Shown in pieces: positions 3,093 to 20,164 of a DNA stretch of 24,000 nucleotides (position 1 is the stretch's first letter; each line of letters starts with the position of its first letter). Both the position numbers and the translations under genes were made by a program. Under the pieces are notes generated by a model that was not told where the DNA came from, did not search any database, and saw only the letters and a list, made by a program, of their open reading frames with translations. Source of the stretch: Gottfriedia acidiceleris. GTDB lineage: Bacteria; Bacillota; Bacilli; Bacillales; Bacillaceae_G. The stretch is from positions 1-24,000 of the forward strand of contig NZ_SCFN01000026.1 of the NCBI RefSeq assembly GCF_004138285.1. Direction: 5' to 3'.

Positions 3093-3821
3093 CTATTTTG
3101 TGCGATGGACGGTTAAGGTTACTTTACTCGTTTCACACATAAACGTTGAAAGGTGGACAGGTTCCTCATTTGAATCATAGGCGATTTTTAAGATTTTAAA
3201 GAGATTGGCTCCTATATCGCATTCAAGGTAACTGGCATATACTTTTGTCGCACCGATTACGTCGATGGTTTTATCGTTGCTTAGAATTTCTGTATTATAG
3301 TCCTTTGAGAGAACTTTATATGTGGATTCGTCTGTTGCTATTTTCTTTTCCAAATCAGGAAAACGAATTAGTGAGTAATGTGCAATATCATAAAAAAGTG
3401 GACGGTCGTTCACATACATAAGTCGCTCAAGTTCTAGTACGCGACTTCCTTCCTCAACTTTGAGATGTTCTGCAACATCCTTTGGTGCCGGGATGACTTC
3501 ACTTCTAAGGATTCGGGAATTTGGAATCATCCCTAGTTGGTGGCTAAACTCTGAGAATCCGCTTACAGATAACAGTTCATTATTAAACTTATTCGAAGCT
3601 ACAAACGTCCCTCTGCGTGGTATGCGTGTCAATGTACCATCCTTCACTAATTCCTCAATGGCCTTTCGAATAGTGATTCGACTGACATTATACGTTTCAC
3701 AAAGCTCAGCTTCTGTGGGAATCTGTTGATCCGGTTTATATTTCCCTTGTTGGATATCATTCTGTAGCATTTGCCTTATCTGCATATAGAGAGGCTGTGG
3801 GGTTGAAGAATTTAGGTTCAT
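3093..3821 (-). CDS. frlR: GntR/HutC-family transcriptional regulator, FrlR-like
   Basis: Winged-HTH block IPTEAELCETYNVSRITIRKAIEELV followed by a UTRA-type C-terminal domain. Last gene of the frl-like cluster. ORF track starts at TTG 3842; I prefer ATG 3821 (AGGA about 8 nt upstream), with ATG 3830 as an alternative. Confidence 0.85.
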   Translation of the reverse strand: MNLNSSTPQPLYMQIRQMLQNDIQQGKYKPDQQIPTEAELCETYNVSRITIRKAIEELVKDGTLTRIPRRGTFVASNKFNNELLSVSGFSEFSHQLGMIPNSRILRSEVIPAPKDVAEHLKVEEGSRVLELERLMYVNDRPLFYDIAHYSLIRFPDLEKKIATDESTYKVLSKDYNTEILSNDKTIDVIGATKVYASYLECDIGANLFKILKIAYDSNEEPVHLSTFMCETSKVTLTVHRTK

Positions 3822-3840
3822 AATTTTCATCCTATCCGTC

Positions 3841-3870
3841 AATGTTTTTCAACATTATTATACACTGCCG
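3841..3870 (-). promoter_or_regulatory. candidate frlR promoter with extended -10, plus overlapping palindrome
   Basis: Minus strand TGTATAAT (3864-3857), a TGnTATAAT match, with a weak -35 GTGACG. The palindrome AATGTT-N4-AACATT (3841-3856) follows immediately downstream. Confidence 0.45.
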
Positions 3871-3881
3871 ACTAGTTATCG

Positions 3882-4664
3882 TCACCATGCACCGAAATAG
3901 CCAATTGTTTTTGCAGCTTTTTTAGTCCCCAATTCCAAACACTGTTGGATCGAAAGGCCCTGTAAAGTACCATAAAGAAAACCAGCTATGAAAGAATCTC
4001 CTGCTCCCATCGTATCTACAACGTTATCTTCTAATATTCCAAATTGATAAAAATGTTTGCCATCGAAAGCAAGAGATCCATTTTCTCCAAGCGTAGCAAC
4101 TGTCATCTTGGAACCTTGTGTTTTTACATCTTTTAAAAATCCCCTGATAAATTCATCATCTTTTTTATAAGAAAAAAAGGAATAGTCCACAAAACTAGGC
4201 AGTGTCCTTACTAAATCGTGCTCTAACTGGTCTGAAAAATCAAATGCAGTAAGCAACCCTTTTTGTTTAAAAAGTGGATAATACCCCTCGACATGTCCCC
4301 ATATACCAGCATGGACAAGTTGATGGGTTTGAATAAACTCCTGTTCCTTATCAGTTAAAGTGAACTGAGCCATTACTCCTTCATCATAATCTCCAAAATG
4401 GCGGTCATTATTAACCAATTCAACATGGGTAACAGCTGTTTTTCCTATCTTTTTAGAAATAAACGACGTATCGACACCTTTACTCTTAATCGACTTAATC
4501 ATTTGTTCACCGAAAAAATCACTTCCAACCCAGCCGATATACGAAGAGTCTGCCCCTAACTCCTTTAAGTAAACAGCAACATTTACCGGATTTCCTCCGG
4601 GATACACTTTTTCGTTTGCAAGATAGACATCCATACAGTTATCGCCGACTGTAACAATTCTCAT
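3882..4664 (-). CDS. frlD: fructoselysine 6-kinase-like PfkB-family sugar kinase
   Basis: 260 aa. Motifs GDNCMDVY, GGNPVNVAVY, DTMGAGDSFIAGF and a C-terminal GAW closely track recalled E. coli FrlD. Confidence 0.85.
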   Translation of the reverse strand: MRIVTVGDNCMDVYLANEKVYPGGNPVNVAVYLKELGADSSYIGWVGSDFFGEQMIKSIKSKGVDTSFISKKIGKTAVTHVELVNNDRHFGDYDEGVMAQFTLTDKEQEFIQTHQLVHAGIWGHVEGYYPLFKQKGLLTAFDFSDQLEHDLVRTLPSFVDYSFFSYKKDDEFIRGFLKDVKTQGSKMTVATLGENGSLAFDGKHFYQFGILEDNVVDTMGAGDSFIAGFLYGTLQGLSIQQCLELGTKKAAKTIGYFGAW

Positions 4665-4698
4665 CTAATCCCAACCTTCTTTTTAATCTAAGAAACGA

Positions 4699-4715
4699 GC
4701 ACTACTATGTAGTGC
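4699..4715 (-). other. intercistronic hairpin between frlB and frlD
   Basis: 7-bp stem GCACTAC/GTAGTGC with a 3-nt loop. On the minus strand it is followed by TCGTTTCTT, a weak U-tract. Possible partial terminator or processing/stability element. Confidence 0.35.
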
Positions 4716-4726
4716 CCATAAATTTT

Positions 4727-5740
4727 TTAATATTCTACTTTGCGGTAGTATCTTCTTAGGTCTAATGAGTGGTTTCTTTCCCTTTCAAGGTATACACTGA
4801 TTCGACTTAAAACTGCCCAGTTAATACTGATAGAAAAGTGTTTTCTAAATTCCTCACTAATGCCTAGCAATTCAAAGTCCTTTGTATCAATTACGGTTAA
4901 TTGATCCGTAATTTTTTCAACAAACCTTTCAACACGATCCATCAATGGTCTTGTTTCATCTTCACCTTTAAGTAAAATAACACTAGTATCCTCAACTACC
5001 AGTTCAAGCGTACCATGGAAAAACTCCGCTGCATGGATGGATTTTGCATGAATCCATTGCATCTCCTCCAAAATACACATTGCGTATGAATAAGTGTTTC
5101 CCCATAAGTTACCTGAGCCCACCATCATATGGTAATCTGTATCCTTATGTTTAATAGCAAATTCCTCAGCCTTTTTATCAAAGTCTTTTACGGCAGCTAA
5201 AATCGCTTGTGGCAACAAGGAAACTTCTTTTGTGAACTTTTCATATTGCGGAAATTCATTGTTATTATACATGAAGCGAAATACTACCATGTACAACAGC
5301 ATAAAGAACGTATCAAATGAATGTTTTTCTGAACCTGTTGTGATACAGTAATCCACTACCTGCGTTAATGGAGTATTCGCCTCTGCTACTAATGCAATTG
5401 TAGTAGCACCCCTTTCTTTACAAAACTCTGCAGCCGCTACAGTTTCTTGTGTTGTCCCTGAAACAGAAGTAAAAATACACACAGAATCCCTTGAAAATTG
5501 CTTATTGTTCATGACCATAAACTCGGCAGCGATTTCAGCATGTACATTGATCGTTGAATTTGATTCTAAAATATATTTATAAGGATACATCATTGCAATA
5601 GTTCCGCCAGCACCAATCAGGAAAAGATTGCTGTAACCTTTTTGACAGATTGAATCGACGATATCCTCAATTTTACTTCTAAATGCAAGTCCTTCTTTTT
5701 CCACAAGTTTTAAAAATAACGCTTCATCAAATTTTAACAT
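4727..5740 (-). CDS. frlB: fructoselysine-6-phosphate deglycase-like, double SIS-domain protein
   Basis: 337 aa with SIS signatures (FLIGAGGT, TSVSGTTQET). The C-terminal RRYYRKVEY resembles the E. coli FrlB tail RRYYGGLVEY. SD AGGGGGA lies 7 nt upstream. Confidence 0.85.
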   Translation of the reverse strand: MLKFDEALFLKLVEKEGLAFRSKIEDIVDSICQKGYSNLFLIGAGGTIAMMYPYKYILESNSTINVHAEIAAEFMVMNNKQFSRDSVCIFTSVSGTTQETVAAAEFCKERGATTIALVAEANTPLTQVVDYCITTGSEKHSFDTFFMLLYMVVFRFMYNNNEFPQYEKFTKEVSLLPQAILAAVKDFDKKAEEFAIKHKDTDYHMMVGSGNLWGNTYSYAMCILEEMQWIHAKSIHAAEFFHGTLELVVEDTSVILLKGEDETRPLMDRVERFVEKITDQLTVIDTKDFELLGISEEFRKHFSISINWAVLSRISVYLERERNHSLDLRRYYRKVEY

Positions 5741-5760
5741 GGTTAGATCCCCCTAAAATA

Positions 5761-5806
5761 TATTTGTTATGTCTTGTATTATAATTAAATATAACAAATA
5801 AAGCAA
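5761..5806 (-). promoter_or_regulatory. frlB promoter with embedded inverted-repeat operator (copy 1 of the conserved 40-mer)
   Basis: Minus strand: TTGCTT (5806-5801), 17 nt, TATAAT (5783-5778). The 10-bp inverted repeat TATTTGTTAT (5761-5770) / ATAACAAATA (5791-5800) brackets the -10. 33/40 identical to 8091-8130. Confidence 0.65.
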
Positions 5807-5815
5807 TCGCATTTT

Positions 5816-7239
<1,424 letters not shown>

Positions 7240-8061
7240 TTATACAATTCCTAATTCATTTAGTTTCACTAAGGATTTTTTAACAGCATCTAGTGGATTT
7301 TGATAGTAAGTTGACCCCATAATTTCAAGGGTGCATGCCCCATCGTATTGGTGCTTTTGAACGCTTTTTACATATTCTCTCCATTGTAAATTACCATCAT
7401 CTAATGCAAGATGAGAATCTGACTTGCTATCACCATCTATTAAATGGAAATGACATAACTCAGGAAGCAATAAAAAATAATCATCTGGTGTTTCACCCGC
7501 CAGGTTCATTGCAACGGTATCAATCATCCCTTTTAAATTAGGGGATTTTATTTCTTCAATCATTCTCTTTAATCCCCGCGTATTAATAATTAAATTAGAT
7601 TCGAATCTTGTTAATGGTTCAAGTGCAAGCGTGATACCCTCGTGCTCCGCCACCTTTGTAATTTGATATATTGATTCACTTGCATATTTCCACGATTCTT
7701 CTTTTGTTAAGGAGAAATCACCTATTCCTGAAGTAATTAGCATCTTTTCCGTCTCCAATTCCACAGCAGAGTGAATATTTTCAATAAAATAATCAATACT
7801 CGTTTTTCGCCAATTCGAATCTGAAGCAGCAAGGTTGTAAGGATAAATGCATTGTTCTGGAGTATAGCAGACTATTTCCATACTTCTAGCTTTAATTTCT
7901 TTCTTTATCTTTCTCAAATTGCAAAGCAAGTTTCTATAAACATAGAGGTGTGGTTCACCAGCCCATAATTCAATGCTACTGATGCCTAATTGGTCCATAC
8001 AATCCAAAAAATATTGGATAGGATAATGCTTGAATGTAATATTCATCCCTGCTATTTTCAT
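7240..8061 (-). CDS. frlC: xylose-isomerase-like TIM-barrel sugar epimerase, FrlC-like (fructoselysine 3-epimerase)
   Basis: 273 aa. Motifs CYTPE..YPYN, LEPLTRFESN and HFHLIDGDSKSDSH match recalled E. coli FrlC blocks. Strong SD AAAGGAGGT. Confidence 0.8.
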   Translation of the reverse strand: MKIAGMNITFKHYPIQYFLDCMDQLGISSIELWAGEPHLYVYRNLLCNLRKIKKEIKARSMEIVCYTPEQCIYPYNLAASDSNWRKTSIDYFIENIHSAVELETEKMLITSGIGDFSLTKEESWKYASESIYQITKVAEHEGITLALEPLTRFESNLIINTRGLKRMIEEIKSPNLKGMIDTVAMNLAGETPDDYFLLLPELCHFHLIDGDSKSDSHLALDDGNLQWREYVKSVQKHQYDGACTLEIMGSTYYQNPLDAVKKSLVKLNELGIV

Positions 8062-8280: not shown

Positions 8281-8315
8281 AAACACAAAAAGGCCTCTAC
8301 ATTACGTAGAAGCCT
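8281..8315 (-). terminator. rho-independent terminator ending the tRNA transcription unit
   Basis: 11-bp stem (8289-8299/8305-8315) with one position that pairs (G:U) only in the minus-strand RNA. Followed by TTGTGTTT. Confidence 0.8.
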
Positions 8316-8338
8316 TATTACTTTTATATATAATTTGA

Positions 8339-8421
<83 letters not shown>

Positions 8422-8434
8422 GAATAAACAAAAG

Positions 8435-8507
8435 TGAGCCATGAAGGATTCGAACCTTCGACCCTCTGATTAAAAGTCAGATGCTCTACCTACTGAGCTA
8501 ATGGCTC
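8435..8507 (-). tRNA. tRNA-Lys(UUU)
   Basis: Minus strand GAGCCATTAGCTCAGTAGGTAGAGCATCTGACTTTTAATCAGAGGGTCGAAGGTTCGAATCCTTCATGGCTCA. Canonical cloverleaf, anticodon TTT. Confidence 0.95.
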
Positions 8508-8623
8508 ATAATAATACGATTTATAAAATATAGCCCATTCTATTAGACGTCCTTGTCTCAGATAGAAATTCAAGTAGCAGTTCAACAAGTACGCTGAAGT
8601 AATCGCTTCGTAGCATATTCGTT

Positions 8624-8650
8624 CGTGCTCTACCTACTGAGCTAATGGCT
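8624..8650 (-). pseudogene. truncated tRNA-Lys copy (acceptor 5' strand + D-arm only)
   Basis: Minus strand GAGCCATTAGCTCAGTAGGTAGAGCAC equals nt 1-26 of the intact tRNA-Lys at 8435-8507, then similarity is lost. Its upstream flank (8651-8675) also resembles the flank of the intact gene (8508-8532). Confidence 0.85.
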
Positions 8651-8778
8651 CGTAATATAAAGATATTACAAGTATAACTAAATACCATATATTTTTAAAC
8701 CAACTTACTGTTTACACGATCGCGCCTAAGATAAAAGCAAATCCCCTTACCTTAAACATATTTATAAAAAAACTAAAA

Positions 8779-8853
8779 TGGCTGGGCTACCTGGATTCGA
8801 ACCAGGGCATGACGGAATCAAAATCCGTTGCCTTACCGCTTGGCTATAGCCCA
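8779..8853 (-). tRNA. tRNA-Gln(UUG), copy 1, CCA encoded
   Basis: Minus strand TGGGCTATAGCCAAGCGGTAAGGCAACGGATTTTGATTCCGTCATGCCCTGGTTCGAATCCAGGTAGCCCAGCCA. Identical to copy 2. Confidence 0.95.
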
Positions 8854-8892
8854 TTGATATAACATCATGAATCAACTTCTCCGAGTAACCTT

Positions 8893-8976
8893 CATGAACC
8901 TGCACCGCAGGATTTTTTTTATGTTGTATTGCCCTACCTCTTGAATTAACTCCTCAAGATAAAAAACAATCCGACA
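8893..8976. repeat. 84-bp conserved core repeat, copy 1 of 5
   Basis: CATGAACCTGCACCGCAGGATTTTTTTTATGTTGTATTGCCCTACCTCTTGAATTAACTCCTCAAGATAAAAAACAATCCGACA. Two substitutions from the consensus. Confidence 0.9.
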
Positions 8977-9014
8977 TTTCGAAACTCATCTTTATCAAGA
9001 ATACGAAATAACTT

Positions 9015-9097
9015 CATGAACCTGCACCGCAGGATTTTTTTTATGTTGTATTGCCCTACCTCTCGAATCAGCTCCTCAAGATAAAAACAATCCGACA
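9015..9097. repeat. 84-bp conserved core repeat, copy 2 of 5
   Basis: Same core, 83 nt: three substitutions and an A5 run instead of A6. Confidence 0.9.
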
Positions 9098-9135
9098 TTT
9101 CAATATACTTCTTATTGTAGAATACGAATTAACTA

Positions 9136-9219
9136 CATGAACCTGCACCGCAGAATTTTTTTTATGTTGTATTGCCCTACCTCTCGAATTAACTCCGCAA
9201 GATAAAAAACAATCCGACA
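9136..9219. repeat. 84-bp conserved core repeat, copy 3 of 5
   Basis: Same core, 84 nt: one substitution (GCAGG to GCAGA). Confidence 0.9.
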
Positions 9220-9261
9220 CTCTAAAAAAATACAAATATACTCTACCTTACAAAAAACAAA

Positions 9262-9336
9262 TGGCTGGGCTACCTGGATTCGAACCAGGGCATGACGGAA
9301 TCAAAATCCGTTGCCTTACCGCTTGGCTATAGCCCA
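9262..9336 (-). tRNA. tRNA-Gln(UUG), copy 2, CCA encoded
   Basis: 75/75 identical to 8779-8853. Sits between core copies 3 and 4. Confidence 0.95.
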
Positions 9337-9375
9337 TTGATTTAGCATCATGAACTAACTCCTTCGAATTAACTA

Positions 9376-9461
9376 CATGAACCTGCAACGCAGGATTTTT
9401 TTTTATGTTGTATTGCTTTTACCTCTCGAATTAACTCCGCAAGATAAAAAACAATCCGACA
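9376..9461. repeat. 84-bp conserved core repeat, copy 4 of 5
   Basis: Same core, 86 nt: loop change ACC to AAC, T9 run, and TGCCCTACC replaced by TGCTTTTACC. Confidence 0.9.
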
Positions 9462-9500
9462 ATTTCGGAATTCATCTTTACCTAAAGTACAAGTAACCTT

Positions 9501-9583
9501 CATGAACATACACCGCAGGATTTTTTTTATGTTGTATTGCCCTACCTCTCGAATTAACTCCGCAAGATAAAAACAATCCGACA
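9501..9583. repeat. 84-bp conserved core repeat, copy 5 of 5
   Basis: Same core, 83 nt: CCTGC replaced by CATAC (small hairpin lost) and an A5 run. Confidence 0.9.
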
Positions 9584-9602
9584 TTTCAAAATATTTTTTA
9601 TA

Positions 9603-9631
9603 AATCTAACTCCATATAACCACTCTTGCTA
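9603..9631 (-). promoter_or_regulatory. weak candidate promoter for the downstream Gln-Gln-Lys-Leu segment
   Basis: Minus strand TAGCAA (9631-9626), 17 nt, TAGATT (9608-9603). Both hexamers are imperfect. This is the only plausible sigma-A match between the internal terminator and the repeat array. Confidence 0.3.
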
Positions 9632-9640
9632 TTTTTCTCC

Positions 9641-9672
9641 AAATAAAGAAAAAAATACTACAATTTGTAGTA
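9641..9672 (-). terminator. rho-independent terminator immediately after tRNA-Asp (internal to the tRNA cluster)
   Basis: Minus strand TACTAC-AAATT-GTAGTA (up to 8 bp as TACTACAA/TTGTAGTA), followed by TTTTTTTCTTTATTT. Starts 5 nt after the CCA of tRNA-Asp. Confidence 0.7.
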
Positions 9673-9677
9673 AATAA

Positions 9678-9753
9678 TGGCGGTCCCGACCGGGATCGAA
9701 CCGGCGATCTCCTGCGTGACAGGCAGGCATGTTAACCGCTACACCACGGGACC
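9678..9753 (-). tRNA. tRNA-Asp(GUC), CCA encoded
   Basis: Minus strand GGTCCCGTGGTGTAGCGGTTAACATGCCTGCCTGTCACGCAGGAGATCGCCGGTTCGATCCCGGTCGGGACCGCCA. Anticodon loop CTGTCAC. Confidence 0.92.
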
Positions 9754-9765
9754 ATATGAAGTTAA

Positions 9766-9841
9766 TGGTGGAGGATGACGGGCTCGAACCGCCGACCCCC
9801 TGCTTGTAAGGCAGGTGCTCTCCCAGCTGAGCTAATCCTCC
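9766..9841 (-). tRNA. tRNA-Val(UAC), CCA encoded
   Basis: Minus strand GGAGGATTAGCTCAGCTGGGAGAGCACCTGCCTTACAAGCAGGGGGTCGGCGGTTCGAGCCCGTCATCCTCCACCA. Confidence 0.95.
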
Positions 9842-9850
9842 AGGATAAAA

Positions 9851-9925
9851 TGGTGACCCGTACGGGACTCGAACCCGTGTTACCGCCGTGAAAGGGCGGT
9901 GTCTTAACCGCTTGACCAACGGGCC
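9851..9925 (-). tRNA. tRNA-Glu(UUC), CCA encoded
   Basis: Minus strand GGCCCGTTGGTCAAGCGGTTAAGACACCGCCCTTTCACGGCGGTAACACGGGTTCGAGTCCCGTACGGGTCACCA. Confidence 0.95.
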
Positions 9926-9932
9926 GTATATA

Positions 9933-10023
9933 TGGCAGAGAAGAAGGGATTCGAACCCTCGCACCGCGTAAACGATCTACACCCTTAGCAGGGGCGCCCC
10001 TTGAGCCACTTGGGTACTTCTCT
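9933..10023 (-). tRNA. tRNA-Ser(GCU), class II, CCA encoded
   Basis: Minus strand AGAGAAGTACCCAAGTGGCTCAAGGGGCGCCCCTGCTAAGGGTGTAGATCGTTTACGCGGTGCGAGGGTTCGAATCCCTTCTTCTCTGCCA. Anticodon loop CTGCTAA, long variable arm. Confidence 0.92.
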
Positions 10024-10030
10024 AAAATAA

Positions 10031-10105
10031 TGGCTCCGCAGGTAGGGTTCGAACCTACGACCACTCGGTTAACAGCCGAGTGCTCTACCACTGAGCTACT
10101 GCGGA
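10031..10105 (-). tRNA. tRNA-Asn(GUU), CCA encoded
   Basis: Minus strand TCCGCAGTAGCTCAGTGGTAGAGCACTCGGCTGTTAACCGAGTGGTCGTAGGTTCGAACCCTACCTGCGGAGCCA. Confidence 0.95.
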
Positions 10106-10152: not shown

Positions 10153-10182
10153 AATATAAACTAAATGCATATTAGATGTCAA
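10153..10182 (-). promoter_or_regulatory. sigma-A promoter of the Asn-Ser-Glu-Val-Asp tRNA operon
   Basis: Minus strand TTGACA (10182-10177), then 17-18 nt to TTATAT/TATATT (10159-10153). Lies just after the sprT stop and about 45 nt before tRNA-Asn. Shares the TGTTGACA -35 context with the promoters at 96-101 and 212-217. Confidence 0.6.
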
Positions 10183-10938: not shown

Positions 10939-11055
10939 ATGGTAATGCCTAGTTGGCTTAAATCTCAAATTCAAAAAGCATTTTATGAAAAAAACCGTTA
11001 TCAAATTAAATTATTGAATCAATGTTGGTTTTATTATCAAAAAATTAAGCTTTAA
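10939..11055 (+). CDS. hypothetical 38-aa small protein (speculative)
   Basis: GGAGG (10926-10930) lies 8 nt upstream of ATG 10939. ORF MVMPSWLKSQIQKAFYEKNRYQIKLLNQCWFYYQKIKL. Its stop overlaps the convergent tex stop by 11 nt. No recognisable family. Confidence 0.25.
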   Translation: MVMPSWLKSQIQKAFYEKNRYQIKLLNQCWFYYQKIKL

Positions 11056-13243
11056 CGATTTCTTTCGATTCAATTGGTAGCATAGATAAACCTACTCTTT
11101 GTTTCTTTTGGTCTACTTCAGCAATCCATACCTTTATTACTTGTCCAACTGATACTACATCAAGCGGATGCTTAATAAATTTGCTACTTATTCTAGAAAT
11201 ATGAACAAGACCATCGTTCTTTAGTCCAATGTCAACAAACGCACCAAAATCGACTACATTTCTTACTGTTCCTTCAAGTTCCATCCCTATTTTTAGGTCT
11301 TCAATTTGAAGAACATCTTGGCGAAGGATTGGTGCTGCTAATTCATCTCGTAGATCTCTTTCAGGTTGCATTAGTGATGCTAAAATATCTTTTAGCGTAA
11401 TTTCACCAATATCTAGTTGCTCTGATACTTCTTTTAAATTAATAGTCTTTAACTTTTCTTTCAATTCATTCGAACCAATTTGACTCGTTGAGAAATTTAA
11501 TTGCTTTAATAATTTTTTTACTTGTACGTAGCTCTCTGGGTGAATACTTGTACGGTCTAAAGGCTCATCTCCTTCAAGAACACGTAAAAATCCAATACAT
11601 TGCTCATATGTTTTAGCGCCTAATCTCGGTATTGTTTTAAGCTCTTTTCGGTTTGTAATTTTCCCTTTTTCGTCACGGTAATTAACAATATTTTTCGCTA
11701 CTGTTTTGGATAAGCCCGATACGTATTGAAGTAGTGAAACTGATGCTGTATTTACATTTACACCAACTTGGTTAACAGAAGTTTCAACAACAAATGATAA
11801 TGATTCATTTAAGCTCTTTTGAGATACATCGTGTTGATATAATCCTACCCCAACAGACTTCGGATCAATTTTTACTAGTTCTGCTAACGGATCTTGTAGT
11901 CTTCTTGCAATTGATACGGCGCTTCGTTCCTCAACTTGGAAATCGGGGAACTCTTCTCTTGCTAACTCAGATGCTGAATAAACACTTGCGCCAGCTTCAT
12001 TTACGATTACATAGTAAGTATTATTTTTCATTTCTTTTAAAATTCCAGATATAAATAGCTCTGTTTCTCTTGAAGCTGTACCATTTCCAATTGCGATCAT
12101 TTCAATTTTATATTTGATAAGAATATCTTTAATTTTTGCAACTGCTTGTTCTCTTTTATTTCTTTGAACCTCTTCCCTTTCTCCTTTGAAAGGATGTGGG
12201 TAAATTACATCTATTTTGAGTACTTTCCCCGTCTCATCTACTACTGCTAATTTACAACCTGTACGAAATGCAGGGTCTACTCCTAACACGATTTTCCCTT
12301 TTAATGGTGGTTGCAGTAATAATGAACGCAAGTTTTCTGAGAAAATATTAATCGCGTGTGAATCAGCTTTTTCGGATAATTCTTTACGAATCTCTCTTTC
12401 AATTGAAGGCTGAATTAATCTTTTATATGCATCTTCAACGACTTCCATTAAGATTGGTCGTACAAAAGTGTCCTTTGTAATAACCCTTTTTTCTAAATAT
12501 AAAATTATCTCATCAAAAGGAGATTGAATTGCAACTTTTAAAATATCTTCTTTTTCAGCACGATTCATAGCTAGTATTCTATGTGGAACAATTTTTGAAA
12601 TTGGTTCAGAGTACTCGTAATACATTTCATAAACCTTTTTCTCATCTTTTTCGGAGTCTTTTACCGTACTGTCAATCGTTCCTTTTTTGAAAGTAACTTC
12701 ACGAATCCACTTTCGATAAGTTGCATCGTCTGCAATCCATTCCGCAATAATATCTTTTCCACCTTGAATAACTTCATCAACTGTATTAACTTCCAGTTCA
12801 ACATTTATGTATTTTAACGCTTCATCTGCAAGTGAACCTTCATTTGGCATTGAAAATAACCATTCTGCAAAAGGTTCTAACCCTTTATCTTTTGCAACTG
12901 TAGCGCGAGTTCTTCTTTTTTCTTTATATGGTCGGTATAAATCTTCAACTTCTTGTAGCTTTGTAGCTAATGTAATACTTTTACGTAAGTCATCAGTCAG
13001 TTTCCCTTTTTCCTCAATTAAACGGATTACTTCATCTTTTCTCGTTTGAAGATTTACCGCATACTCATATTTTTCTAAAATGGAATGAATTTGCACCTCA
13101 TCAAGAGAACCCGTTTTTTCTTTTCGATACCTGGCAATAAAGGGAATCGTATTTCCTTCTTCCTTTAGTTCAATTACGGTAGCTACTTGTTTAGATGTAA
13201 TCGATAAATCAGATGCAATTTTATTAATCAATTGTTGTGACAA
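11045..13243 (-). CDS. tex: Tex-like transcription accessory protein (YqgF/HhH/S1 domains)
   Basis: N-terminal Tex HTH region (IPFIARYRKE), a YqgF-like core, and a C-terminal S1 domain (GTVRNVVDFGAFVDIG). The track start TTG 13258 overlaps the SD; the real start is TTG 13243 (GGAGG 8 nt upstream). Confidence 0.93.
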   Translation of the reverse strand: MSQQLINKIASDLSITSKQVATVIELKEEGNTIPFIARYRKEKTGSLDEVQIHSILEKYEYAVNLQTRKDEVIRLIEEKGKLTDDLRKSITLATKLQEVEDLYRPYKEKRRTRATVAKDKGLEPFAEWLFSMPNEGSLADEALKYINVELEVNTVDEVIQGGKDIIAEWIADDATYRKWIREVTFKKGTIDSTVKDSEKDEKKVYEMYYEYSEPISKIVPHRILAMNRAEKEDILKVAIQSPFDEIILYLEKRVITKDTFVRPILMEVVEDAYKRLIQPSIEREIRKELSEKADSHAINIFSENLRSLLLQPPLKGKIVLGVDPAFRTGCKLAVVDETGKVLKIDVIYPHPFKGEREEVQRNKREQAVAKIKDILIKYKIEMIAIGNGTASRETELFISGILKEMKNNTYYVIVNEAGASVYSASELAREEFPDFQVEERSAVSIARRLQDPLAELVKIDPKSVGVGLYQHDVSQKSLNESLSFVVETSVNQVGVNVNTASVSLLQYVSGLSKTVAKNIVNYRDEKGKITNRKELKTIPRLGAKTYEQCIGFLRVLEGDEPLDRTSIHPESYVQVKKLLKQLNFSTSQIGSNELKEKLKTINLKEVSEQLDIGEITLKDILASLMQPERDLRDELAAPILRQDVLQIEDLKIGMELEGTVRNVVDFGAFVDIGLKNDGLVHISRISSKFIKHPLDVVSVGQVIKVWIAEVDQKKQRVGLSMLPIESKEIVKA

Positions 13244-13280
13244 AAATAACGCCTCCAATTTTTGGGAATTTTAAAGGACC

Positions 13281-13310
13281 TAAAATAACCCTTTCAAAAC
13301 GAAAGGGTTA
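13281..13310 (-). terminator. hairpin/terminator between ndoA and tex
   Basis: 10-bp stem TAACCCTTTC/GAAAGGGTTA, 5-nt loop, followed on the minus strand by TTTTAGGTCCTTT. Only about 25 nt separate it from the tex SD. Confidence 0.65.
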
Positions 13311-13359
13311 CAAAACATTTATTATAATCTATGTAGGTAAAGCTGCTATAAAAGCAACT

Positions 13360-13710
13360 TTAAAAATCAACAAGTCCTAAACTGATTTGCAACGCTTCGT
13401 CAACCTGATCCATCATCTCATCATCAAGATGTGTTATCTTATCGGTTAATCGTTGTTTGTCAATCGTTCGAATTTGTTCTAGTAGTATAACCGAATCACG
13501 TTCAAATCCATATTTTTTAGCATCGATTTCAACATGTGTTGGAAGCTTTGCTTTTTGGATTTGTGCTGTAATCGCAGCGACTATAACGGTAGGACTAAAA
13601 CGATTACCGATATCATTTTGTATTATGAGAACCGGACGAACTCCACCTTGTTCTGAGCCAACTACAGGGGAAAGGTCTGCAAAATATACGTCGCCACGTT
13701 TTACTATCAA
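13360..13710 (-). CDS. ndoA: MazF/EndoA-family mRNA interferase toxin
   Basis: 116 aa. [62 protein letters not shown] is nearly the B. subtilis EndoA sequence. Confidence 0.95.
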
Positions 13711-13714
13711 GTGA

Positions 13715-13996
13715 TTACCCCCCGCTAACTAAGCGCTCCACTTTAGAATCCGCTTCAGACTCAGCATAGAATGACTCAGAAGATATTAATAAGTTGATTT
13801 TAGCCATTTCCATGTATCCACGTCGCATTTGTTCGCGACTTTGGCGTCTTTTACGATCTTTTAAAAACATCTTAGTCGCTTGATAAATATACTCATTTCG
13901 ATTACCGTTTTCTTGCTTTACTAATCCATCTAGTTCGCTTACTACGTGTTTTGGTAAACGTACTGTTATTTCAGTTGTCGCATTTAGTTCGGACAA
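13715..13996 (-). CDS. ndoAI: MazE/EndoAI antitoxin (RHH family)
   Basis: 93 aa, directly upstream of ndoA (4-nt gap). TTG start with GGAGGTG 7 nt upstream. Conserved alr-ndoAI-ndoA context. Confidence 0.9.
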
Positions 13997-18466: not shown

Positions 18467-20011
18467 TTATTTATTGCTATCTTGGTGTCTGCGTTGTCCG
18501 CCACGGTTTGCATCGCGAGAACCTTCACTACGTTTGCCACGGAAGTTTCCACCACGGTTTCCGTCTCTATCTCCACGGCGACTATCTCCACGGCGGTCTC
18601 CACCACCACGACGATTGTCTCCTCCGCCACGTTTGTTTTCGCCACGACGGAATCCACCTCCGCCGTTCCCACCACGTCCACGGTCACGTTTCACCATTGG
18701 TGGTTCATCAGTTAAACGGATTGGAGTTTCATTTGGTTCTTTTGTTAGCATTTTTAAAGCAGCTGCAACAACACTTACTGAATCATGTTCTTCAAGTAAT
18801 TCTTCAGCAATACGTTTGTAGAATGCTAAGTTGTCACTTTCCATTGTTGAAGTTAATTTTTCAGCAATAATACGTTGTTGGCTTTCAATTGCCTCATCCA
18901 ATGTAGGTGCAGTCATACGTTCCATACGGCGTTTAGTTGTACGTTCAATATTTTTTAATTGATTAAACTCACGCGGAGTGATGAATAACATCGCGATACC
19001 TGATTTTCCAGCACGACCTGTACGTCCGATACGGTGAACATAGCTTTCAGGATCTTGAGGAATATCAAAGTTATAAACGTGTGTTACACCAGAAATATCT
19101 AATCCACGCGCTGCTACGTCCGTTGCAACTAAAACGTCAATTGAACCAGATTTAAATTTACGAAGTACTTGCTCACGTTTTGCTTGTGATAAATCACCAT
19201 GAATACCTTCAGCTGCATAACCACGTAGGTTTAACGCTTCAGATAATTCATCAACACGACGTTTTGTACGACCAAAAATAATTGCTAATTCTGGAGTTTG
19301 AATATCTAATAAACGTGTAAGCACGTCAAATTTTTTCTTTTCTTGAACTTCAATAAAGTGTTGTTCAATATTAGGCATTGTAACTTCTTTTGCTTTTACT
19401 TTTACGATTTGAGGATTTGTCATAAAAGTTTCTGCAATGCGACGAATTGGATCTGGCATTGTAGCAGAGAAAAGAAGTGTTTGTTTGTTTTCAGGAACTT
19501 CTTTTAAAATCGCTTCGATATCTTCAATGAATCCCATATTTAACATTTCATCCGCTTCATCTAATACCACTGTATTAACGTTATTAAGACGGATTGTACG
19601 ACGGTTAATATGGTCTTGAATACGACCAGGAGTTCCAACAATAATATGTGGGAATTTTTTTAATGAACGCATTTGACGGTTAATGTCTTGTCCACCGTAG
19701 ATCGGAAGGATTTTTACACCTTTGTTCATACCAATTTTGTGTAATTCTTCACCAACTTGGATTGCTAATTCACGTGTAGGTGCGATTACAAGTCCTTGAA
19801 CATTGTTGCTATCTACATCAATTTTCTCTAGCAATGGAACACCAAAAGCGGCAGTTTTACCAGTACCAGTTTGCGCTTGACCAATTACATCATGGCCTTG
19901 TTTTGCTAATGGAATAGTCTGCGCTTGAATTGGTGTAGCTTCCTCGAAGCCTAATTTTTCAATCGCAAACAGGATCTTACTACTTAATCCTAATTCTTGA
20001 AATGTTGTCAA
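18467..20011 (-). CDS. cshA: DEAD-box ATP-dependent RNA helicase CshA with an RG/RGG-rich C-terminal tail
   Basis: Q motif, [21 protein letters not shown] and [10 protein letters not shown]. The start is TTG 20011 (AAAGGAG 10 nt upstream; MTTFQELGL). The 29-codon upstream extension in the track has no SD. Confidence 0.95.
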
Positions 20012-20164
20012 TTTGGTTAATCTCCTTTGTATCTCAATTGATCTATAAAAATGATCTATAAAAAATCTATTAAAATTATATGTTTCGTGACTGTTCATAA
20101 GGAAGGTTCGTTTTTAGTGGAAAACAATTGTCCGAAGTATCATGAAAAGAAACAATATCTACTC

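Follow-up and report, generated by a model that had tools for sequence, protein, structure and literature searches.

A tRNA operon of Gottfriedia acidiceleris, contained in a 24,000-nt stretch of contig NZ_SCFN01000026.1 (positions 1 to 24,000; hereafter the window), carries five repeat units, each with a highly similar non-coding core, interleaved with two tRNA-Gln genes. Our preferred explanation, to which we give somewhat less than an even chance, is that this array is the tandemly amplified 5′ leader (spacer) of tRNA-Gln in the sprT-linked tRNA operon of Gottfriedia-like bacilli, with the unit nearest each tRNA-Gln gene (Gln-proximal) acting in cis and the units farther from it (Gln-distal) being by-products. 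In order of transcription the operon comprises a probable promoter, tRNA-Asn-Ser-Glu-Val-Asp, two units, tRNA-Gln, three units, tRNA-Gln, a partial unit, a tRNA-Lys 5′-half, tRNA-Lys, tRNA-Leu and a probable terminator (Table 1). As the array lies inside a promoter-to-terminator tRNA operon, it is an internal transcribed spacer (ITS) and the strand relevant to it is the minus strand. No sigma-70 match of at least 9/12 was found inside any unit on either strand of the window, and a relaxed scan of eight regions gave none that was conserved in position; the simplest reading is therefore that the polycistronic tRNA precursor includes the units.

Tandem Repeats Finder reported an array with a 121-nt period at 8893-9219 (2.7 copies, 90% matches, score 535), a repeat search placed five copies in register at spacings of 122, 121, 241-242 and 123-124 nt, and a core pattern of 27 specified bases had exactly five matches in the window, with 0.00 expected from shuffles and none in the remainder of the 24 kb. 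The five conserved cores with diverged linkers, first reported in a preliminary description made from the sequence alone, are therefore real. The cores are ~83-86 nt long and differ from their own consensus at 3, 5, 1, 4 and 2 positions (in the order 8893, 9015, 9136, 9376, 9501), partly in homopolymer length (T5/T6, A8/A9); pairwise identity among them is 89-96%, whereas the linkers of 38-40 nt are 71-75% identical within a type and 54-61% identical across types. The duplication of tRNA-Gln(UUG) within the array, also reported there, was confirmed, the two genes being identical across 75 nt, and the partial sixth core at 8728-8744 is present and is kept in all relatives.

The anatomy of the unit and all pairing counts were taken from an alignment of 25 copies (window and relatives), read on the tRNA strand. 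Each unit begins with a nearly invariant 5′ block (UGUCGGAUUG-U5-7-AUCUUGAG), followed by a variable apical segment of 7-8 nt (GGAGUUAA, GAGGUUGA and others), a conserved UUCGAGAGGU, a hypervariable purine-rich segment of 4-6 nt and a conserved 3′ block (GCAAUACAACAU-A7-9-UCCUGCGGUGCAGGUUCAUG), after which the linker starts. In the RNAalifold consensus the 5′ half, rich in U, pairs with the 3′ half, rich in purines, giving a predicted imperfect, G·U-rich hairpin of ~55 nt (UGUCGGAUUGU5-6AUCUUGAG ... UUCGAGAGGU-RRRR-GCAAUACAACA), 3′ of which lie an unpaired A7-9 tract, a 5-bp hairpin (CCUGC-GGU-GCAGG) and UUCAUG. Standard pairs fill 94% of the pair cells of the long and small hairpins, in contrast to 41-58% when the partners are slid by 1-3 columns, and the variation seen within pairs is almost all one-sided (U-A to U-G, G-C to G-U). 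The modelled structure is thus consistently maintained across homologues, though not proven by covariation. The long inverted repeat between the U-run and the A-run that had been described earlier is present in the sequence but is not the main fold, as a fold constrained to it is 4-8 kcal/mol less favourable than the minimum-free-energy structure.

Comparison of the two strands showed greater stability of the long hairpin on the tRNA strand in 25/25 copies (mean -12.8 kcal/mol, versus -5.5 kcal/mol on the opposite strand), with a mean z-score relative to dinucleotide shuffles of -2.5 on the tRNA strand and -1.3 on the other. Due to the fact that 30% of the pair cells of the long hairpin are G·U, 96% are paired in the sense orientation and only 67% in the antisense orientation; for the small hairpin the corresponding values are 86% on the minus strand and 79% on the plus strand. 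The preliminary description had placed its emphasis on the plus strand, where CCTGC-ACC-GCAGG followed by T8 is flagged by a simple scan as terminator-like in 3/5 window copies; the stem is no longer than 5 bp. This emphasis is not borne out, as both the long and the small stem hold better on the tRNA strand. The small hairpin of copy 3, considered in that description to be degraded without compensation, retains its pairing on the minus strand as UCUGC/GCAGG via a U·G wobble, and the GCGGG variant of both L003 copies and the GUAGG variant of all L008 copies (L001-L015 being the locus labels given to relatives) likewise pair only on the minus strand, via a wobble; all three have a C·A mismatch on the plus strand. 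Judged from these substitutions, the plus-strand "terminator" is the complementary image of a hairpin that stands behind an A-tract on the minus strand.

When 185,579 species, each represented by one genome, were scanned with an exact pattern, only three gave a match, Gottfriedia sp. NPDC057991, G. acidiceleris DSM 18954 and Bacillus sp. FJAT-25509, once each and all in the orthologous operon, and a second pattern matched two Joint Genome Institute (JGI) metagenome contigs, again in the orthologous operon. An exact look-up of the SprT protein of the window returned no entry. SprT homologues led to further copies at the orthologous place in Bacillus sp. AL-1R (L004), the closest relative by this protein (95% identity), and in the more distant L013 (79%). 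In total, 25 copies were recovered from eight genomes or contigs of one small, Gottfriedia-like group of soil bacilli, all of them at the orthologous locus, either between tRNA-Asp and tRNA-Gln or between two tRNA-Gln genes. Neither a hidden Markov model (HMM) nor a covariance model, both derived from the full set of copies, detected additional ones in ~104 kb of locus sequence, and viral contigs, plasmids and phages gave no match to the core. A dispersed repeat family is thus not supported, as every copy found by exact-pattern scans, HMM and covariance model sits at one locus; the genome-wide scans relied on exact patterns that are met by only some copies, so that divergent dispersed copies could escape them. 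Among the close SprT homologues most contigs stop ~100 nt past sprT, and only L004 and L013 added arrays. Four of these contigs (L005, L006, L007 and L012) are short-read (Logan) contigs with close SprT homologues, all ending ~100 nt after sprT. Contigs that end so close to sprT point to the tRNA operon as an assembly breakpoint, and arrays are therefore under-sampled in draft genomes. In L010, a metagenome contig (SprT 80%), only tRNA-Asn follows sprT (1847-1921 onward), and Toprim fragments and DUF3231 come after it, which represents either another operon architecture or a misassembly.

Comparison of the orthologous locus between relatives, proposed in the preliminary description, showed that the length of the array varies, with 1-5 units and 1-2 tRNA-Gln genes per genome. 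L002 and L009 have the order core-linker-core-Gln-core-linker-core-Gln (2+2), and the 2+3 layout of the window equals this arrangement plus one unit in the second block, the linker downstream of the surplus unit appearing by eye to be a mixture of both internal linker types. L003 has 1+2 units, one of which is decayed, L004 has 1+1 and L013 has 0+1. Three units and a single tRNA-Gln (3+0) are found in L001 and L008, as expected of a crossover between cores that removed the middle tRNA-Gln. In the sequences compared, the patterns of variation in unit and tRNA-Gln number fit crossing-over between cores. In the seven close genomes, an intact unit (at least 104 bits) and a linker that folds as a hairpin stand immediately 5′ of each tRNA-Gln gene; in the window, the 39-nt pre-tRNA linker after unit 2 folds as a 14-bp hairpin. 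The three degenerate copies in these genomes (63, 77 and 86 bits) are all Gln-distal.

Outside this group, the tRNA-Gln spacer of Fredinandcohnia (L014) is 188 nt long, and its last ~70 nt resemble, by eye, the 3′ end of the unit together with the pre-tRNA linker; the covariance-model match is weak (16 bits, E 1.6). As the 3′ part of the unit resembles the Fredinandcohnia leader, this part looks like the ancestral tRNA-Gln leader. The long hairpin and the amplification are, on the loci compared, specific to the Gottfriedia-like group. Inspection by eye also placed TTGACA/TATAAT in the Val-Gln spacer of L014 (3975-4163), and TTGTGT-17-TATAAT, 13 nt upstream of tRNA-Gln, in the 59-nt spacer before tRNA-Gln of L015 (3968-4026). 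In the genera of Fredinandcohnia and L015, tRNA-Gln and the genes following it may form a separate transcription unit.

The cores are more alike within a genome than between genomes, with a mean of 9.7 and 12.2 differing columns, respectively (permutation p < 0.0002). For 4/5 window cores the nearest neighbour lies within the window, and identity between genomes at matching positions is 82-87%, below that among the window cores. Private variants are common to copies of the same genome, such as the C that three window copies carry at column 33 and the G that both L003 copies carry at column 89. The closeness of copies within a genome and the private variants they share point to concerted evolution. 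Linker types, compared by eye, are shared between genomes at corresponding positions, which indicates that the basic array is older than these species. The preliminary description had attributed the contrast between core and linker to selection or gene conversion acting on the core. Of these, conversion or unequal crossing-over is favoured, and core-specific purifying selection is not, because single-copy spacers of the operon are at least as conserved: between genomes the last unit has a mean identity of 82% with 60% invariant columns, the tail after the last tRNA-Gln has 88% and 69%, and the lead after tRNA-Asp, which carries the hairpin and U7 and is the best-kept spacer of the operon, has 94% (across seven genomes) and 85%. 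The core/linker contrast is thus due mainly to recombination between copies.

As an amplified tRNA-Gln leader, the Gln-proximal unit would act in cis as an independently folding leader that exposes an A-rich stretch and a small hairpin, and it would help to separate and mature tRNA-Gln by offering an entry site to an endonuclease, followed by RNase P. The Gln-distal units would be by-products of unequal recombination, tolerated, partly homogenised by gene conversion and sometimes decaying, and an unstable number of tRNA-Gln genes would be a side effect of the repeats. The cis role of the proximal unit is our inference. Several results weigh against this explanation. The contrast between distal and proximal copies (3/12 versus 0/12 degenerate) is only suggestive (one-sided Fisher p about 0.11). 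Changes on both sides were seen in only two pairs, the covariation score was reached by 26-27/500 shuffles, the sequences are closely related, and the U-A to U-G changes that preserve pairing are also the commonest mutations. At 82% identity between genomes, the core is no better conserved than the single-copy spacers (88-94%), which leaves selection on the core undemonstrated. In L013 the first tRNA-Gln lacks a core, and the more distant L015 has a short leader with its own promoter, from which it follows that the module is not needed for tRNA-Gln in general. Finally, the hairpin and U7 after tRNA-Asp might halt much of the transcription before it reaches the array.

The main rival explanation, which we regard as unlikely but which carries real weight, is that the array is functionless repeat DNA: a segment of the tRNA-Gln spacer was duplicated by chance, the array grew and shrank by unequal crossing-over, conversion reinforced itself where the copies were most similar, and the hairpin has no significance, arising from a U-rich stretch opposite a purine-rich one. 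This accounts for same-genome copies being closer than copies at matching positions elsewhere and sharing private variants, for a core conservation not above that of single-copy spacers, for the degenerate copies and a copy number ranging from 1 to 5, and for the near absence of compensatory double changes; a second, unrelated tandem array in the operon suggests, in addition, a locus prone to duplication. However, uniform drift with conversion does not predict ~20-nt blocks that are invariant or nearly so in 23 copies next to two short hypervariable segments. The strand-specific stability of the hairpin also exceeds that of dinucleotide shuffles, an intact unit precedes every tRNA-Gln in seven close genomes, and the linkers escaped homogenisation despite sitting between converted cores. 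Spacer-derived small RNAs (sRNAs) are less probable still, at a low chance. Here RNase P, RNase Z and an endonuclease would free the units as stable, multi-copy hairpin RNAs acting in trans, for example as decoys that titrate an RNA-binding protein or a CU-rich small RNA by means of the Shine-Dalgarno-like motifs GAGGAG, GAGAGG and AGRGG and the A-rich single strand. The units do lie on the tRNA strand, structured, in several copies and with no promoter of their own, the unpaired ACAACAUAAAAAAAAUCC is among their best-conserved parts, as expected for a recognition site, and Escherichia coli provides precedents in the 3′ external transcribed spacer (3′ETS) sponge (PMC9514646) and rtT RNA (bioRxiv 10.1101/2024.07.17.603846). 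Yet the predicted fold leaves the purine motifs mostly paired, the apical loop and purine segment vary freely among copies, distal copies decay, and the element is confined to one small clade.

The remaining alternatives concern the DNA or the other strand. It is improbable that each core is a DNA-level element, namely an internal promoter of tRNA-Gln, possibly for an alternative sigma factor, or the binding site of a regulator. The promoter-like sites found by eye directly upstream of tRNA-Gln in L015 and in L014 would suit this, a downstream promoter would make sense after the terminator-like hairpin behind tRNA-Asp, and conserved blocks around a short variable segment are a promoter-like pattern. 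The sigma-70 scans nevertheless gave no match of at least 9/12 in the units, the best relaxed matches shift position, the variable segment changes length by 4-6 nt, altering the spacing of any hexamers, and comparison by eye with the consensus sequences of SigB, SigH, SigE, SigG and SigK gave no convincing match. The plus-strand terminators of the preliminary description (CCUGCACCGCAGG then U8), which would stop antisense transcription or end small antisense RNAs, have a very small chance of being the explanation, although six sites lie in the region compared with 1.6 expected and a T8-9 tract stands behind the stem in most copies: besides the shortness of the stem, the variants GCGGG, GUAGG, GCAAC and GGAAC keep their pairing or wobble-pair on the minus strand and produce a C·A mismatch or destroy the stem on the plus strand, no plus-strand promoter was found in the window scan, the flanking genes on both sides are on the minus strand, and the rest of the conserved core would be without a role. 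Least probable, at a minimal chance, is a small mobile element similar to a miniature inverted-repeat transposable element (MITE) or a repetitive extragenic palindromic (REP) sequence, inserted repeatedly beside tRNA-Gln. An imperfect 13-nt terminal inverted repeat (GGATTGT6AT / ATA8TCC) brackets most of the core, and the Fredinandcohnia leader resembles, by eye, a unit minus its hairpin interior. Against this, one locus holds all copies found, plasmids, phages and viral contigs lack a match, the linkers that flank the copies share homology, as in tandem duplication and unlike independent insertions, and no target-site duplications were seen.

The tRNA operon in which the amplified leader would be transcribed is detailed in Table 1. 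Transcription probably starts at the TTGACA-18-TATATT site 5′ of tRNA-Asn and the operon probably ends at the 12-pair hairpin. The hairpin behind tRNA-Asp, the U7 of which has an alternative pairing partner in the downstream GGAGAAAAAUA, could be a weak or leaky terminator-like or processing element that controls transcription into the array and tRNA-Gln. The only conserved sigma-70-like match between tRNA-Asp and tRNA-Lys is TTTAAA-17-TATACT, and its conservation 3′ of the tRNA-Gln genes hints at a possible separate promoter for tRNA-Lys and tRNA-Leu.

Table 1. Features of the tRNA operon and its repeat array, in order of transcription. Coordinates are window positions given on the plus strand; the array is read 5′ to 3′ on the minus strand.
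Feature	Position	Strand	Basis or remark
Sigma-70-type promoter-like site TTGACA-18-TATATT (11/12), 5′ of tRNA-Asn	10153..10182	-	Promoter scan; identical sequence in L008
tRNA-Asn, Ser, Glu, Val, Asp (upstream part of the operon)	9678..10105	-	tRNA search and Rfam
Hairpin ACUACAAAUUGUAGU then U7, directly 3′ of tRNA-Asp	9632..9672	-	-11.2 kcal/mol, z -4.0
Unit 1 in transcription order (copy 5 of the preliminary description), core, Gln-distal	9501..9583	-	Covariance model, 110 bits
Unit 2 (copy 4), core, Gln-proximal	9376..9461	-	Covariance model, 116 bits
tRNA-Gln(UUG), upstream copy	9262..9336	-	tRNA search and Rfam
Unit 3 (copy 3), core, Gln-distal	9136..9219	-	Covariance model, 117 bits
Unit 4 (copy 2), core	9015..9097	-	Alignment; surplus unit relative to the 2+2 layout of L002 and L009
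Unit 5 (copy 1), core, Gln-proximal	8893..8976	-	Covariance model, 121.5 bits
tRNA-Gln(UUG), downstream copy	8779..8853	-	tRNA search and Rfam
Partial copy, 5′ part of core (GGGGAUUUGCUUUUAUCUUAGG)	8716..8756	-	Repeat search; fixed 3′ boundary of the array in every genome
Sigma-70-like match TTTAAA-17-TATACT, downstream of the tRNA-Gln genes	8671..8699	-	Promoter scan
One ~144-nt unit of a second, separate tandem repeat	8508..8651	-	Tandem-repeat and repeat searches
tRNA-Lys and tRNA-Leu	8339..8507	-	tRNA search and Rfam
Intrinsic terminator-like hairpin, 12 pairs, then T-rich tail TTTGTGTTTA	8290..8316	-	Terminator scan

The second tandem repeat of the operon is unrelated to the core. Its unit of ~144 nt joins the leader of tRNA-Lys to the 26 nt at the 5′ end of that gene and an insert of ~93 nt, and is predicted to fold at -34.9 kcal/mol (z -1.9). 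One copy is present in the window (8508-8651, minus strand) and one in L002 (2591-2734), two are found in L008 (8256-8545) and three in Bacillus sp. AL-1R (L004 4587-5020), L003 and L009 have none, and L001 carries a deleted variant. The gene order on the minus strand of the window is alr, a mazEF-like pair, tex, sprT, the tRNA cluster and a catabolic cluster of sugar-amine type. The last of these (3093-8061, minus strand), ordinary in appearance and similar to loci for fructosamine-type catabolism, comprises genes for a TIM-barrel protein of xylose-isomerase-like type, an amino-acid permease, a protein with a SIS domain, a PfkB kinase and a regulator of the GntR/UTRA type. In the window (11045-13996), tex is immediately preceded by the mazEF-like pair, a place taken in Fredinandcohnia (L014 1-2651) by a sigma-factor gene with Sigma70 r2-r4 domains; with different genes upstream of tex, synteny there differs between the genus of the window and Fredinandcohnia. 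Tandem Repeats Finder also reported two short tandem repeats elsewhere in the window, one with a 15-nt period and 1.9 copies within an open reading frame (ORF) region (18567-18595) and an A+T-rich one with a 13-nt period and 3.1 copies (20039-20076).

The array is non-coding, as stated in the preliminary description, since run lengths of A7-A9 and U5-U7 break every reading frame. Small ORFs on either strand were considered and rejected, as run lengths and stops vary among copies and no ribosome-binding site lies 5′ of them; a plus-strand MNLHRRIFFMLYCPTSRINSAR ORF is possible in some copies only, and minus-strand short ORFs from UUCAUG are not common to all copies. The earlier statement that no known RNA family is recognisable also held in a covariance-model (cmsearch-type) check, in which only tRNAs passed the Rfam gathering thresholds. 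With E up to 10 over 8500-9680, the best non-tRNA match was OmrA-B (21 bits; gathering score 40), a score owed to the small hairpin and the T-run, and Rfam families including rtT RNA, T-box, glutamine riboswitches and Bacillaceae-1 gave no match at the gathering threshold. A tRNA remnant was rejected in spite of a resemblance of GGTTCATGAA to a T-loop, as no tRNA model matched with E up to 10. A CRISPR array was rejected because the repeat is ~84 nt long and the "spacers" are homologous to each other and conserved between genomes; no cas genes were found among the neighbouring genes scanned. A MazF site (UACAU) was dismissed, the exact site being absent from the core, and informal comparison with consensus sequences gave no convincing match to a Spo0A box or to TnrA/GlnR, parS, DnaA or Ter sites. 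A sense-strand attenuator, in which the linker end and GUCGGA form a 5-bp hairpin before the U-run, is limited to one linker type and too weak. A literature search on repeats in Bacillus tRNA operons returned nothing relevant.

The element is an uncatalogued, clade-restricted, amplified tRNA-leader module, for which the nearest analogue is the tyrT operon of E. coli with its rtT RNA (Rfam RF00391). The tyrT operon contains tandem repeats, each of which includes a piece of the tRNA 3′ end. In both cases, tandem repeats of 100-200 nt occupy the tRNA strand of a tRNA operon, are co-transcribed with the tRNA and lack their own promoter (as predicted for the array described here). They differ in that the tyrT repeats show no sequence or covariance-model similarity to the Gottfriedia units and lie downstream of a tRNA, whereas the Gottfriedia units are located upstream of tRNA-Gln and are free of tRNA sequence; the second array of this operon (tRNA-Lys 5′-half units, 8508-8651) carries a tRNA fragment and is structurally closer to tyrT. 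In the E. coli tyrT operon region, the small RNA rtT is encoded by the rttR gene (bioRxiv 10.1101/2024.07.17.603846). An external transcribed spacer of an E. coli tRNA acts as a sponge for RyhB and RybB, and fragments of transcribed spacers have been suggested to be functionally conserved in Enterobacteriaceae (PMC9514646). Like 3′ETS-leuZ and the ITS fragments, the Gottfriedia units are spacer RNA of a polycistronic tRNA transcript that tRNA-processing nucleases could release. Unlike these, which are single-copy, short, released by RNase E and base-pair with known small RNAs, the Gottfriedia spacer is amplified 1-5 times and belongs to a Gram-positive host. With rRNA operons and LhrC1-4 of Listeria the array shares the closeness of same-genome copies, the shared private variants and a copy number that changes by unequal crossing-over. 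Each LhrC small RNA has its own promoter and terminator, whereas no Gottfriedia unit has a promoter or terminator on the transcribed strand. A repeat-rich tRNA operon of Photobacterium phosphoreum is reportedly a recombination hot spot, and a literature search for it returned nothing relevant; it is reportedly similar in having a repeated tRNA gene and spacer that recombination makes variable, and different in phylum, tRNA and repeat sequence.

If the units were released as small RNAs that titrate such a partner, a post-transcriptional regulon would be tied to the transcription of a tRNA operon, and hence to growth rate, in a Gram-positive bacterium, with a dosage tuned by changes in copy number; we know of no multi-copy spacer-derived regulators within a tRNA operon in Bacillales. 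In practical terms, the locus breaks short-read assemblies, and counts of such arrays from draft genomes will be too low. If the array is an amplified tRNA-Gln leader, it would provide a small-scale example of how the spacers of tRNA operons evolve, in which a structured leader has been amplified and homogenised by recombination, shifting the number of tRNA-Gln genes among close relatives.

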